Assembly (NCBI GenBank): GCA_030598325.1
Contig: JAUVQE010000003.1
Location: forward strand, 1 to 34,904
DNA from: Nitrospirota bacterium
GTDB lineage: Bacteria; Patescibacteriota; Gracilibacteria; UBA1369; LOWO2-01-FULL-3
DNA length: 34,904 bases
Direction: 5' to 3'
Below, piece after piece: positions 11,874 to 22,389 of this stretch. The notes beneath the pieces were generated by a model, which was not told the origin of the DNA, did not search any database, and saw only the letters and a program-made list of their open reading frames with translations. Made by a program: the position numbers and the translations under genes. Positions within the stretch are counted from its first letter, which is position 1. Every line of letters begins with the position of its first letter.

Positions 11874-14060
11874 TTATTTTATTACTTTTAACGGAGCAAT
11901 ACTAAGCGCTAATTTTTTTACTCCGACCTTCGGATCTTCAAACGCGACAGTCGCTACACCCCCCACAACGCTAACCACAATACCATTTCCAAACACATTA
12001 TGCGAAACTTTGTCACCCGAAGAAATCTCAATATCAAGCCCTTTATCAAGCTCAACAGGAATAGGCCGATTATCAATATCCGACACCGAAATATGCTGTC
12101 TGGCACTATGCCCGCCAAAATTAGCCTCAATAAATTGCTCATCAATATCAGCTAAAAACTGAGAAGGCGCATTAGCTCGCGACTCTCCATAAAGCATCCT
12201 GCTCCGGGCATGAATCAGATATAGCTTTTCCATGGCCCTTGTCATAGCGACATACATCAGCCTGCGTTCCTCCGCCAATTCACCCGGATCCATCAAGCTT
12301 CTGTTGTGCGGGAAAATTCCCTCTTCCAGGCCGGCAATAAACACATAAGGAAATTCAAGTCCCTTAGCCGAATGAACAGTCATCAAAGTAACCGCGTTGT
12401 CCTCATCGTCCAGGCTGTCGAGATCCGAAATCAGACTGACCTCCTCAAGAAAAATATTCAGACTAACTCCGCTCTCAAGGTCATTATATTTGTGGGCAAC
12501 CGAAATAAGCTCATTAATATTTTCAATTCTCGCCTCACCTTCGACACTCCCATCGTTAATCATTTTCTTGTAACCGGTTTCATCCAAAACAAACTTTATC
12601 ATCCCGCTCGCCGGCGTTTCTTTGTTTTTCTCCTGCAAATTTTTAATCAGTTTGACGAAATCTTCCAGAACTTTGGCTTTACTCTCCGGAATTTCTTCAA
12701 TCTCGTTAGCGAGCAACATGGCGTCAAAAAAAGATAAATTATGTTTGATCGCAAATTCGCGAACGGTATCGAGGGTTTTTGCCCCAAGTTTGCGGGTTGG
12801 GGTGTTTATAATCCGGAAAAGGCTCACGGAATCATTTGGATTTTGAATAACTCGCAGGTACGCGAGAAGATCTTTAATTTCTTTTCTGGAATAAAACTTG
12901 ATTCCACCGACGATTTTGTAAGGAATGCCGTGCCTCATAAAAACTTCCTCGAAAATACGGGACTGGGCGTTTGTGCGGTAAAGCACAACAAAATCTTTAT
13001 AAGCCGGAAATTCGCTTCCAATAAGTATATTCTCGATTTCACAAGCAACCATTTGTCCTTCATGCCTCTCGTTGTCCGTAAGCCAACGACGAACTTTGTC
13101 ACCGCCCTCCCGCTCGGTCCAAAGAACTTTTTCCTTCCTATGCGCGTTTTTCTTTATGACGCAATTCGCGGAATCCAGAATAATTTGAGTAGATCTGTAA
13201 TTTTGTTCCAGCATTACGACTTTCGTTTCCGGATAATCTTTCTCAAAATCGAGAATATTTCGAATAGTCGCGCCCCGCCAACTGTAAATACTCTGATCCA
13301 CATCCCCAATCACACAAATATTTTGATATTTTTCCGCCAAAAGCTTGATAAGCACATATTGCGCCTTATTCGTATCCTGATACTCATCCACGGAAATAAA
13401 TTTAAATTTTTCCTGATATTCATCAAGGATATCGGGAAATTTTTGGAATAATTCCACGGTTTTCATAATAATATCATCAAAATCCAACGCACTACTTCGT
13501 ATCAAAGCCTTTTGGTATAGAGGATAAATTTCCGCGACCTTTTCTGAAAAATAATCATTTGCGTAGCTTCGGAATTCATCGGAACCGATCAGTTGATTCT
13601 TAGCATTCGAAATATGGGCAAGCACCGCCTTCGGATTTACCCGTTTTACATCCAGATTCATATCTTCCATGACTCTTTTTATCAAAATTTGCTGATCAGC
13701 CATGTCGTAAATACCAAAAGAATTTTCATAATCCAAAAGATGAATATGTTTTCGGAGAATTCTTACGCAGATTGCATGAAAAGTTCCGACACTCGGAATA
13801 GAGCCACCATAATTATTATTAAGATCAATAGAAAGCAGTTTCGCGATCCGATTTTTCATCTCATTCGCAGCCTTGTTTGTAAAAGTAACCGCCAGAATAT
13901 TCCAGGGGCTTACTCCCTTTTCCTCAATCAACCAGGCGATTCTATGGGTAAGAGCTCTTGTTTTTCCACTCCCGGCCCCCGCAACAACAAGCAAAGGTCC
14001 GGTAAAATGAGTTACCGCCTTAATCTGTTTATCATTCAAGTTTTCTAAAATTTTGCTCAT
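11874..14060 (-). CDS. pcrA: ATP-dependent DNA helicase PcrA/UvrD
   Basis: AGAGSGKT, TFTNKAA, VDEYQDTN, LEQNYRST, LYRTNAQSR, HSAKGLEF, EERRLMYVAMTRA and a C-terminal Tudor-like domain. Confidence 0.96.
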   Translation of the reverse strand: MSKILENLNDKQIKAVTHFTGPLLVVAGAGSGKTRALTHRIAWLIEEKGVSPWNILAVTFTNKAANEMKNRIAKLLSIDLNNNYGGSIPSVGTFHAICVRILRKHIHLLDYENSFGIYDMADQQILIKRVMEDMNLDVKRVNPKAVLAHISNAKNQLIGSDEFRSYANDYFSEKVAEIYPLYQKALIRSSALDFDDIIMKTVELFQKFPDILDEYQEKFKFISVDEYQDTNKAQYVLIKLLAEKYQNICVIGDVDQSIYSWRGATIRNILDFEKDYPETKVVMLEQNYRSTQIILDSANCVIKKNAHRKEKVLWTEREGGDKVRRWLTDNERHEGQMVACEIENILIGSEFPAYKDFVVLYRTNAQSRIFEEVFMRHGIPYKIVGGIKFYSRKEIKDLLAYLRVIQNPNDSVSLFRIINTPTRKLGAKTLDTVREFAIKHNLSFFDAMLLANEIEEIPESKAKVLEDFVKLIKNLQEKNKETPASGMIKFVLDETGYKKMINDGSVEGEARIENINELISVAHKYNDLESGVSLNIFLEEVSLISDLDSLDDEDNAVTLMTVHSAKGLEFPYVFIAGLEEGIFPHNRSLMDPGELAEERRLMYVAMTRAMEKLYLIHARSRMLYGESRANAPSQFLADIDEQFIEANFGGHSARQHISVSDIDNRPIPVELDKGLDIEISSGDKVSHNVFGNGIVVSVVGGVATVAFEDPKVGVKKLALSIAPLKVIK

Positions 14061-14112: not shown

Positions 14113-14142
14113 TTGACCTTTTACTTTAATTCTGCTTAAATT
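14113..14142 (+). promoter_or_regulatory. Putative promoter of the zinc-ribbon gene
   Basis: TTGACC (14113-14118), 18 bp, TAAATT (14137-14142); divergent from a pcrA TATAAT at 14087-14082. Confidence 0.5.
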
Positions 14143-14152
14143 CTCCCTCGTA

Positions 14153-14165
14153 TGCTCATTTACAA
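14153..14165 (+). promoter_or_regulatory. boxA-like element
   Basis: TGCTCATTTACAA matches the rrn boxA sequence TGCTCTTTAACAA at 11 of 13 positions, just downstream of the predicted transcription start. Confidence 0.45.
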
Positions 14166-14210
14166 ATAGAAATTTAAAGTTGGGGAAGCAAAACAAAGAA
14201 GGGACCACGA

Positions 14211-14486
14211 ATGGAAACGCAAACGGAAACACGACCGCAAACGCAAACGGAAGTCAGCTTTTGTAACAATTGCGATGACCACAGTAAAATGGGACATCAT
14301 TTCTGCCCCGACTGCGGAAGGAGGACAAACGGAGACAGCAGGGACACAACAACATACTGCCTGAGATGTGTAGGAAAGCTCAAGGCAGTACTGTCTGAAC
14401 GTGTCCTGCAAAAAGAATGTTATTGTCCCAACTGCAGGACAATGACAGACACATTGTTCGAGCCCACCAAGATGCTCGGCTTCTAA
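14211..14486 (+). CDS. Small double zinc-ribbon protein
   Basis: 91 aa with four CxxC motifs (CNNC, CPDC, CLRC, CPNC); purine-rich GAAGGGA upstream; own promoter. Confidence 0.75.
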   Translation: METQTETRPQTQTEVSFCNNCDDHSKMGHHFCPDCGRRTNGDSRDTTTYCLRCVGKLKAVLSERVLQKECYCPNCRTMTDTLFEPTKMLGF

Positions 14487-14513
14487 CAACTTTCCGGCTC
14501 CCCCAAAGCCCTA

Positions 14514-14584
14514 CCCTACGTCAGCTACTAAAATTATTATCAGGATATTCTAAAAATATACTTGAAATATCAGCTGGCGTGGGG
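14514..14584 (+). other. Long RNA stem-loop in the 3' region of the zinc-ribbon gene
   Basis: CCCTACGTCAGCT (14514-14526) pairs with AGCTGGCGTGGGG (14572-14584): 13 bp with two G-U pairs. Inner stem TCAGGATATT/AATATACTTGA. Confidence 0.65.
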
Positions 14585-14619
14585 AAAAACTAAACTTTCT
14601 CAACTTTAGATTTCTATTC

Positions 14620-15636
14620 CTAATACTGGACAACCACTTTGTCCCCGACCTCAGTAAAGCCAAATAGCCATACAGCATTATCATCCCCGATCCTGATACA
14701 GCCATGGCTTACAGGGATGCCTAAATGACTCACAGCCTCCGTCCAGAACCAACCACCATCATTTCCCAGGCTGGGGAGGGCGTGCATCCCGTACCCGCCG
14801 GCTCTAAACATCTGAAAATAAGGCATTATATAGTGTGGAGATTTCGAACCAACGCGAAGTTCCTGCTTCAAACTGATATAGGTCGTTCCAACAGGAGTAG
14901 GAGTAGCCGAAGCACCCGTACTTACCCGAAATTCTCTTATTACGTCCTCACCCAGTTTTACATACATCATCTGTTCGGAAAGATCGACTAAAACAGACCT
15001 TTCCCCATCCAGATTCATATCCATCACGGAACCACTGTCAAAAGCATAAGACAATCTTTTTCTCAAATTCTCAGAACTTTCATCAACATCTCCAACCATA
15101 ATTTCAAAGGAAAACTGCGCGTCATCAATCCACTGAATGCCACTAAGAATAGGAGTAAAATACTCTTTTATTACATCAGGCTCATCCGGAGCTTCCGACC
15201 AAAAAGTAAAAGAAGCAATTTGTCCCGGATCAATTCTCAGCTGATCCATGCCAATTCTGTTCGAGTCTTCCCAGTTTGTTTCCTCGACACCTAAAAGTTC
15301 GGGTGAATAAAAAATACTGTCCCGATCTCGTTCCTTATCGGTTCCCAAATGCATTTCCGGCCCCAGACACTCACTTTCAGCGGAAAACCAGGGCATATTA
15401 CCGGTATTTTTAATAAAAACCTTAACCCGGAAAATTTCTCCCGGTTCAATTTTAAGTTTTCTTCTGACAGCCACAACTTCAGCATCATAAGATTCACCTT
15501 CTTCGGGAAAATTAAACCCGCACACCTCTCTCTCGCCGCTTTCCATATCATCCGCAAAAGCAACAGAACAGCTGATCACGCTAGCGAAAATGACCAAAAC
15601 AATCGGAAATAATCTGAATAATCTACTGAAACGCAT
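14620..15636 (-). CDS. L,D-transpeptidase (YkuD family) with an N-terminal Ig-like domain
   Basis: Signal peptide, IKNTGNMPW Ig-like motif, VDLSEQ, VSTG...TPVG, catalytic HAL...SHGCIR. Confidence 0.9.
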   Translation of the reverse strand: MRFSRLFRLFPIVLVIFASVISCSVAFADDMESGEREVCGFNFPEEGESYDAEVVAVRRKLKIEPGEIFRVKVFIKNTGNMPWFSAESECLGPEMHLGTDKERDRDSIFYSPELLGVEETNWEDSNRIGMDQLRIDPGQIASFTFWSEAPDEPDVIKEYFTPILSGIQWIDDAQFSFEIMVGDVDESSENLRKRLSYAFDSGSVMDMNLDGERSVLVDLSEQMMYVKLGEDVIREFRVSTGASATPTPVGTTYISLKQELRVGSKSPHYIMPYFQMFRAGGYGMHALPSLGNDGGWFWTEAVSHLGIPVSHGCIRIGDDNAVWLFGFTEVGDKVVVQY

Positions 15637-21381: not shown

Positions 21382-22389
21382 ATGGCAACATACGAAGAAT
21401 CCGGAGTAAACATAAATCTCGGTGATAAGTGTTCGGCAATCGCGTACTCGGCGGCAAAAAAAACTTTTGCGGGTCGCAAAGGGATGATAGGGGAGCCACT
21501 TACGGATGAAGGCGGTTTTTCCGGAGCGCTCGATATGGGCGATTATTATTTGGTGCAAAACGATGACGGGGTCGGAACAAAGATAAAAATTGCGGAAATG
21601 ATTGGGAAATACGACACTATGGCATACGACTTGATTGCGATGGTTGCCGATGACGCGGTTTGCATGGGAGCTGAAACAATTTCGATCACAAATACTTTAG
21701 ATGTAGATAAAGTAGATGAATCTAAAATTACACCACTGATGGCAGGGCTGGAAAAAGCCGCTTTAGAGCACAAAATCGTAGTTCCGGGAGGAGAAATCGC
21801 GGAACTTGGCGAAATGGTAAATGGATATATTTGGAATGCGACAGCGGTTGGGATTGTTGAAAAAAATAAATTTATAACCGGCGAAAATATCAAAAAAGGA
21901 GACAAATTAATAGGTCTCCACTCAGACGGCCTTCGCTCAAACGGATTTTCACTCGTACGTTACATCCTAAAAAATAAATTTGGAGAAAATTGGCACCGGG
22001 AACGCTTCAGTGATACACAAACTTGGGGCGAAGCGGTTCTTACTCCATCAAAAATTTACTCTTCCGCAATCCTCGAAATGCACGGACGGTACAAAGAAAA
22101 ACCAAAAGTAGACCTAAAAGGGGTCGTCCATGTAACCGGTGGTGGAATTTTTTCAAACACTGATCGGGTTTTAAAGAAAACAGGACTAAAAGGTCAGTTT
22201 ACAAATCTTCCCGAACCCCACGAAATGATGAAAAAACTCATGGAATTCGGAAACGTATCAAAAGAAGAAGCATACAAGACATGGAATATGGGAATTGGAA
22301 TGATTCTCATATCAAACGATGTAGAAGAAATCCGGAAAATCTGCTCAAAGCACAAAATCGAATCTCAGATCATCGGAGAAATCGGTTAA
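21382..22389 (+). CDS. purM: Phosphoribosylformylglycinamidine cyclo-ligase (AIR synthase)
   Basis: TYEESGVNI, DGVGTK, GGEIAE, SDGLRSNGFSL, HVTGGG, WNMGIG. Confidence 0.92.
   Translation: MATYEESGVNINLGDKCSAIAYSAAKKTFAGRKGMIGEPLTDEGGFSGALDMGDYYLVQNDDGVGTKIKIAEMIGKYDTMAYDLIAMVADDAVCMGAETISITNTLDVDKVDESKITPLMAGLEKAALEHKIVVPGGEIAELGEMVNGYIWNATAVGIVEKNKFITGENIKKGDKLIGLHSDGLRSNGFSLVRYILKNKFGENWHRERFSDTQTWGEAVLTPSKIYSSAILEMHGRYKEKPKVDLKGVVHVTGGGIFSNTDRVLKKTGLKGQFTNLPEPHEMMKKLMEFGNVSKEEAYKTWNMGIGMILISNDVEEIRKICSKHKIESQIIGEIG

Follow-up and report, generated by a model that had tools for sequence, protein, structure and literature searches.

Do the two ends of a short bacterial message pair with each other, in the way that the flanks of a ribosomal RNA (rRNA) precursor do? 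The question is raised by a small unit, called cassette A here, in the window, by which we mean the whole 34,904-nucleotide (nt) stretch of DNA whose first lines are given above and which is contig C41 of its source assembly, G000 (0.92 Mb, or 916 kb, in 76 contigs, 74% complete). Cassette A sits in a 559-nt spacer that runs from pcrA/uvrD (11874-14060, minus strand) to a YkuD gene (14620-15636, minus strand), and its plus strand carries an open reading frame (ORF) for a zinc-ribbon protein. A preliminary description had seen here a self-contained unit with a promoter, a boxA-like site, mutually complementary untranslated regions (UTRs), a Shine-Dalgarno (SD)-like site and a long 3' stem, and had likened it to an rRNA operon. 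All of these strings are found where it had placed them, and the unit is indeed self-contained and conserved as a whole in five related sources. The ends of the predicted mRNA also pair, through a 24-base-pair (bp) helix that stands above shuffled controls, whereas the two pairings originally named are both at the level of chance. The five units compared throughout come from G000, from the other three genomes of the same genus (G001, G002 and G003) and from a metagenome contig (L026), and thus represent a single genus; leader-pattern scans of the sequence collection returned only these three genomes and this contig.

The helix joins a 5' arm at 14165-14188 to a 3' arm at 14595-14618, both read on the plus strand, in 24 uninterrupted base pairs that include 3 G.U pairs. 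Its arms lie downstream of a conserved promoter-like site, 23 nt ahead of the ATG and 109 nt past the stop codon of the zinc-ribbon ORF, and the 3' arm ends 1 nt short of the YkuD stop codon (14620-14622). When the leader (14143-14210) and the trailer (14487-14625) were shuffled, the longest uninterrupted run in 2000 trials was 17 bp, and 24 bp was reached in 0/2000. This longest run replaced duplex energy as the statistic, the energy being blurred by large internal loops; by energy, 6/1000 shuffles match the leader-trailer duplex. The closing helix is also the longest helix in the whole 916-kb assembly with arms 120-1500 nt apart, it belongs to the minimum free energy (MFE) fold in 5/5 units, and cassette A folded as a whole gives a z-score of -7.36. 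The pairings proposed earlier fare differently. The first joined TTGGGGAAGC (14180-14189) to GCTCCCCCAA (14497-14506) at 9/10 positions, and the duplex between leader and proximal trailer (-16.3 kcal/mol) is equalled in 986/1000 shuffles; the second joined AAAGTTG (14176-14182) to CAACTTT (14487-14493), and a perfect run of at least 7 occurs in 938/2000 shuffles. The two share the leader TTG and are therefore mutually exclusive. By ending the unit at 14584, the preliminary description had missed the true 3' arm, which lies beyond that point.

Across the five units, 118 of the 120 cells of the closing helix are paired and 21 of its 24 pairs never vary. Two varying pairs still pair, one by a change from U.G to C-G in G002 and the other by a change from G-C to G.U in G002 and G003. 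The paired cells that are not Watson-Crick comprise 16 G.U on the plus strand and 0 A.C, and because all of them are G.U on that strand, the helix, like the hairpin described below, would act as RNA. Conservation of the arms differs sharply from that of the sequence they enclose: pairwise identities average 0.96 in the leader (14150-14189) and 0.95 in the 3' arm, compared with 0.60 in the coding sequence (CDS). Between G000 and L026, the 3' UTR differs at 2 of its 132 positions whereas third codon positions differ at 22 of 74, and X3 and X5 DNA-run contigs map to leader and trailer, not to the CDS, at a likeness of at least 80%. These alignments show that selection acts far more strongly on the flanks than on the coding part. 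In G003 this leader and this trailer enclose a tandem pair of zinc-ribbon ORFs, and in G001 the downstream neighbour is other than ykuD while the trailer stays with the zinc-ribbon gene, which indicates that leader and trailer belong to this gene and not to its neighbours.

Inside the closing helix and past the ORF lies a long hairpin of 71 nt (14514-14584, plus strand), composed of a 13-bp outer stem and an inner stem-loop. This is the 3' stem of the preliminary description, and it holds up well: the five units share a consensus fold in which 3 pairs have changed on both sides, and the folding of the hairpin reaches a z-score of -4.57 on the plus strand compared with -1.03 on the minus strand. 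No U-run follows the hairpin in G000, and no terminator-like site was found on the plus strand between 13500 and 15200. Between the stop codon and the hairpin is a C-rich box, GGCTCCCCCAA (14496-14506, plus strand), a possible alternative partner of the leader at 14180-14190, which is kept in 5/5 units, with one extra C in G001. An alternative fold that uses the box lies 4.3-5.0 kcal/mol above the MFE in four of the five units and 11.2 kcal/mol above it in G000, and no covariation can be obtained for this pairing because both strands are invariant. The SD-like site is covered neither by the closing helix nor by the alternative pairing. What the preliminary description took for the pairing of the ends, here 10/11, may represent a second, alternative state.

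Upstream of the helix, the promoter-like site (14113-14142, plus strand, 9/12) has TTGACC at 14113-14118 as its -35 element and two candidates for its -10 element, namely TAAATT at 14137-14142 with a spacer of 18 or TTAAAT at 14136-14141 with a spacer of 17 and TGC in front. TTGA(C/T)C and an A/T-rich -10 element are retained across the five units, and we infer a transcription start near 14148-14151. The 5' leader segment that follows (14150-14164, plus strand) is nearly invariant, the sole variation in the alignment being C/T at 14155, and with it runs the boxA-like TGCTCATTTACAA (14153-14165). A TGTA-N8-TACA dyad present in 3/5 units, in an alignment judged by eye, was considered as a LexA-type operator and dropped as too weak.

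The SD-like GAAGGGA (14198-14204, plus strand), a motif match, lies 6 nt upstream of the ATG, and an A-rich stretch with an AAGGGAC-like motif precedes the start in 5/5 units and also the second ORF of G003. Such a site appears to be uncommon in this organism. The earlier remark that most genes here lack one roughly holds, as SD-like 4-mers occur at positions -20 to -4 in 64 of 761 crude gene calls of G000, whereas a control window placed within the CDS has them in 122 of 761. Because the 4-mers are rarer before starts than within genes, G000 seems to avoid SD-led initiation. The 3' end of 16S rRNA in G003 reads CATCTCCTTTCT instead of CACCTCCTTTCT, which we take to be the usual form, so that the anti-SD would be altered.

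Is cassette A alone in its genome? Scans of G000 for long-range helices, which used neither ORFs nor SD sites, returned two further loci with few G.U pairs, cassettes B and C. The sister units supposed in the preliminary description thus exist in part: both loci combine a small ORF with a leader-trailer helix and an SD-like site, as cassette A does (3/3 cassettes), but neither has a conserved boxA-like motif. Cassette C occupies 1491-1922 of contig C61 (locus L032, about 492-923), where it was identified by scan and covariation. Its helix of 17 bp plus 8 bp with a 4-nt bulge encloses an ORF (1611-1844) for a 77-aa two-helix membrane protein, which is preceded by the SD-like site GAGGAGGA; a long leader hairpin is also present. 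In four genomes 100/100 cells of this helix are paired and 5 pairs are changed on both sides, a covariation score reached by 1/500 shuffles, and 7 cells are G.U on the ORF strand with 0 A.C. The enclosed ORF has 139 aa in G002 and about 54-77 aa in the others. The layout of cassette C resembles that of a type I toxin mRNA. Directly 5' of its stalk, at C61:1479-1489, stands GTTCATTAAAA, which agrees at 10/11 positions with GYTCTTTAANA and shares GYTCATT with the leader motif of cassette A; as it is not kept in three relatives, the match is probably due to chance.

Cassette B lies on the minus strand of contig C62 at 21502-21851 (locus L027, about 603-952), with an ORF (21555-21818) for a basic, Q-rich protein of 87 aa that has a CxxC...H...CC pattern and diverges fast. 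Its arms are GTAGGGTAGCAAA and TTTGCTACCCTAC and its SD-like site is AAGGAGAGG. The relatives of cassette B have promoters of the form TTGACT/TTGACA-17-TATAAT/TATAAA and a 3' hairpin ahead of the 3' arm. A second CCCTAC box upstream in cassette B is a possible competitor for the 5' arm. For both cassettes, B and C, the match to relatives at the DNA level is confined to the flanks. Together the three loci support the view that cassettes A, B and C form a small class of small-ORF units with leader-trailer helices in one genome.

The reading that we favour, and that we hold to be probable while keeping considerable reserve, is that cassette A produces an end-closed small-protein mRNA, the UTRs of which form the 24-bp helix round the ORF and the 3' hairpin, in the manner of the family's pre-16S architecture. 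A monocistronic transcript would extend from about 14150 to at least 14618, and its 5' and 3' UTR ends would fold into the helix that encloses the ORF and the conserved hairpin. RNase III would then probably cut the closing helix, as it does in pre-16S processing. A 24-bp helix is long enough to be a natural substrate of this enzyme. Its gene is present in three of the four genus genomes, the fourth being 76% complete, and it adjoins nusB on the same strand at a distance of about 70 nt in G000 (C16:8380-9218), and likewise in G001 and G003. Cuts in the stalk would define both ends of the mRNA in an organism in which the hairpin lacks a U-tail and in which no Rho domain was found in five genomes of the family, among them one that is 97% complete in a single contig. 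G000 has genes for RNase J and an RNase Y-like enzyme, a decay set of the Gram-positive type, and with its ends paired the message would be protected from RNase J and from 3' exonucleases. SD-led initiation would compensate for the structured leader, and because the leader is structured, translation would rely on an SD-like site of a kind rare in the genome. Finally, the invariant GGCUCCCCCAA box may replace the distal arm as the partner of the leader once that arm is lost, as in the switch of hok mRNA.

Several points count against this proposal. The start, the end, the cleavage and even transcription itself are what we infer from the DNA, and a start near 14150 leaves a single-stranded 5' tail of 15 nt, so that protection from RNase J is not assured. 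Within cassette A, 0 pairs of the closing helix are altered on both sides; the argument that it acts as RNA therefore rests on the G.U asymmetry, on strand-specific folding and on the analogy to cassette C. The comparison covers just five units of one genus, and the gene calls behind the SD statistics are crude. Enrichment of long-range helices in the genome is modest, with 3 segments scoring at least 14 (length minus G.U) compared with 3 in 5 shuffled genome-equivalents, a count in which the segment of cassette A was entered by hand since a spurious antisense ORF of 109 aa had been taken as a gene. Cassette B, moreover, pairs over only 13 bp (Watson-Crick, on the ORF strand), a short length for an RNase III substrate.

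Could the unit instead be governed by a working boxA, as the preliminary description had suggested? The leader would then load NusB/S10 and the Nus factors, and the mRNA would be transcribed and matured by the rRNA antitermination complex, a possibility that we consider improbable. The motif scores 11/13 against the E. coli boxA 13-mer, and this quality is at the level of chance: the window holds 1 match at no more than 2 mismatches, compared with a mean of 1.77 in shuffles, of which 83/100 hold at least 1. On the other hand, the motif is invariant in the five units save for C/T at one position, NusB is present in four of the four genus genomes, and boxA control of mRNAs outside rrn is documented for suhB and a ParE-like toxin (PMC5725501, excerpt). 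It is also immediately followed by the stalk, an arrangement like that of boxA in the family's rrn leaders; there the 16S stalks between leader and trailer measure 28 and 30 bp and start inside boxA (2 loci analysed of 3 tried; L017, L018), so that boxA would become double-stranded once the trailer is made. The rRNA-operon analogy is an apt one. However, GCTCATTTACA departs from the consensus GYTCTTTAANA (PMC5725501, excerpt) at two fixed positions (T5, A8) in 5/5 units. The rrn leaders of four genera of the family carry CTTTAACAT(C/T)T with the core CTTTAACA in 4/4, where cassette A has CATTTACA in 5/5 units. The same CTTTAACA core is implied for the genus itself by the 16S trailer of G003, which holds ATGTTAAGG, the complement of C(U/C)UUAACAU; the genus boxA is deduced from this trailer, as the assemblies G000-G003 hold only the 3' part of 16S (in G003). 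With no Rho domain found in the five family genomes there is no evident need for antitermination, and the lack of a conserved boxA-like motif in cassettes B and C also speaks against a working boxA. From its position and conservation, the motif is best described as a conserved leader element placed where boxA sits in rrn. A two-state message of the hok kind, to which we likewise give little credence, would make use of the C-rich box: the closed full-length RNA would be stable and poorly translated, and 3' trimming to the hairpin would allow GGGGAAGC to re-pair with the proximal GGCUCCCCC and thereby change translation, possibly as part of a toxin-like module. Both candidate leader partners are invariant, the alternative fold is within 4.3-5.0 kcal/mol of the MFE in four units, hok mRNA switches through a tac/fbi stem and 3' maturation (PMC9841398, excerpt), and the small two-helix membrane protein of cassette C is of the usual type I toxin kind. 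The zinc-ribbon protein is, however, hydrophilic, unlike a membrane toxin, neither a gene nor a promoter for an antisense RNA was recognised at cassette A, the SD-like site is free in both folds, the 11.2 kcal/mol in G000 is a heavy cost, and the proximal pairing yields no covariation.

The conservation of the arms could also reflect a function as DNA, either as terminal inverted repeats (TIRs) of a small mobile or recombining cassette whose ORF is swapped by recombination, or as paired protein-binding sites. Constant flanks with varying content fit such a view (two ORFs in G003; in cassette C, 139 aa in G002 compared with about 54-77 aa elsewhere), as does the extension of the inverted repeat of cassette A to 29 nt at 83% complementarity. 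We nevertheless judge it very improbable, because every imperfect pair is a G.U on the ORF strand and A.C is absent (16 cells in cassette A, 7 in cassette C) and the folding is strand-specific. Cassette A moreover has no second copy in G000 even at 8 or fewer mismatches, it stays at the same locus beside pcrA/uvrD in all sources, and no transposase or recombinase gene is found among its neighbouring genes. Least credible of all is chance complementarity in an A/T-rich spacer whose flanks are kept because they hold the pcrA/uvrD promoter and the ykuD terminator, both on the minus strand. A 10/12 promoter-like site for pcrA/uvrD does exist on the minus strand (14109-14082), and ykuD ends at 14620 with a weak minus-strand hairpin and T-run in G000; yet that promoter-like site is not within the leader, the trailer accompanies the zinc-ribbon gene even where ykuD is missing, folding of the minus strand is no better than that of shuffles, and none of the 2000 shuffles gave 24 bp.

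The ORF enclosed by the helix is a true gene (14211-14486, plus strand), to judge from homologues, invariant cysteines and the codon pattern. This 91-aa stand-alone double zinc ribbon with four CxxC has stop-free homologues in 3/3 of the other genus genomes (E 5e-14 to 8e-16, 36-44% identity), each adjoining pcrA/uvrD, and L026 also carries the gene, so that the same locus is found in five sources overall. The 8 cysteines of the four CxxC are invariant across 7 aligned sequences, and substitutions between G000 and L026 at codon positions 1/2/3 number 10/7/22 (74 sites each). The Pfam model DZR (PF12773) gives 25.6 bits (E 1.4e-5), under its curated cutoff of 27.3, and the precomputed annotation of the collection assigns PF12773 to the protein. 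A word-based protein search with it returned only itself and one relative at 83%. A profile of the 7 sequences, run against 1.84 billion representatives, gave 1389 matches at E of 0.001 or below; the best 150 of these are mostly long proteins with many zinc-ribbon repeats, among which only P0002 and P0005 stand out as full-length relatives. In terms of sequence similarity, therefore, the zinc-ribbon proteins are a narrow family of stand-alone double zinc ribbons. The AlphaFold model of the protein is poor, with a mean predicted local distance difference test (pLDDT) of 52.8. Imperfect ACGCAAACGGAA-like direct repeats at 14214-14253 of the window give the protein a T/Q/E-rich N-terminus of low complexity, which has another length and sequence in every relative. 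The 109-aa antisense ORF mentioned above (14160-14489, minus strand) overlaps the gene, and similar shadow ORFs occur in relatives; it is most likely no gene, because the codon-position pattern favours the plus-strand frame.

The YkuD gene, which is convergent to the zinc-ribbon ORF, encodes an L,D-transpeptidase. Under translation table 11 the window is filled with dense long ORFs in which TGA serves as a gene end; genetic code 25 was rejected, since table 25 only adds spurious frames and TGA terminates genes. In an Rfam search of the window no family reached its gathering score, and around cassette A the search gave only microRNA and small RNA matches at chance level, as it did in cassettes B and C apart from a tRNA next to them. 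A search of the window for tRNA and tmRNA found none. Elsewhere in G000, the 18-mer ATAAAAATTTAATGTTTG occurs three times (C18:4607-4624, C25:19359-19376 and C69:18629-18646), suggesting an unrelated family of short repeats.

The preferred reading can be carried further, in a form that we regard as doubtful, to framed mRNAs made like rRNA throughout the genus and perhaps in many small-genome bacteria of the Candidate Phyla Radiation (CPR) and their phages. An RNase III-cut stalk would form and protect both ends of the messages and replace terminators, each message would have a dedicated SD site, cassette A would in addition be re-closed after 3' trimming by a hok-like GGGGAAGC/GGCUCCCCC pairing, and the extreme case would be a circular mRNA. 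If RNase III does process cassette A, this would show how mRNA ends can be defined without Rho in a nearly SD-free organism, and how a few messages can be singled out for SD-led translation. The combination of a long-range helix and an SD site round a short ORF would then also provide a sequence-independent signature for small-protein genes in uncultivated bacteria.

Only a few individual bacterial mRNAs are known in which the UTRs pair (hok, icaR and hbs), whereas here such pairing appears as a repeated design in three small-protein genes of one reduced genome. Unlike an element bounded by TIRs, such as a miniature inverted-repeat transposable element, cassette A is single-copy in G000 and keeps one locus in five sources. 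With boxA-regulated mRNAs such as suhB (PMC5725501, excerpt) it shares a boxA-like motif in the 5' UTR less than 50 nt from the start codon, although this motif is off the consensus at two fixed positions and is not the same as the boxA of the organism's own rrn. In Staphylococcus aureus icaR mRNA the 3' UTR pairs with the 5' UTR (PMC3868564, excerpt). Cassette A is similar in its predicted UTR-UTR pairing within one mRNA and in a C-rich box in the putative 3' UTR. The C-rich 3'-UTR box of icaR is reportedly an anti-SD that covers the SD and represses translation, with RNase III said to be involved; unlike in this account of icaR, the pairings of cassette A leave the SD-like site uncovered. 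In hok mRNA, a long-distance tac/fbi pairing of the 5' and 3' ends closes and stabilises the full-length message (PMC9841398, excerpt), and cassette A resembles it as a small-ORF mRNA with predicted 5'/3' closure whose 5' element has alternative candidate partners. It differs from hok in that its protein is a soluble zinc ribbon, sequestration of the SD is not predicted and no Sok-like antisense RNA was recognised at cassette A.

Parallels are also found in hbs and in rRNA. In Bacillus subtilis hbs mRNA a 14-bp pairing of the 5' and 3' UTRs overlaps an RNase Y site and modulates ribonuclease action (PMC5737220, excerpt). Cassette A likewise has a small SD-led ORF of about 90 codons, predicted UTR-UTR pairing and a decay set with RNase J and an RNase Y-like enzyme, but its helix has 24 uninterrupted bp, it contains an additional conserved 3' hairpin, and the design is found at three loci. 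In E. coli pre-16S rRNA the leader-trailer stalk is cut by RNase III (PMC10250234, excerpt), a step that is predicted for cassette A. The cassette is distinct from pre-16S rRNA in enclosing a 0.3-kb ORF with an SD-like site, in having beside its stalk a motif that is off the rrn boxA consensus, and in a stalk that follows this motif where the rrn stalk begins within boxA itself. Like the pre-16S stalk, it has a long helix of product-flanking sequences just after a promoter-proximal leader, 24 bp in the cassette compared with 28 and 30 bp in the family.

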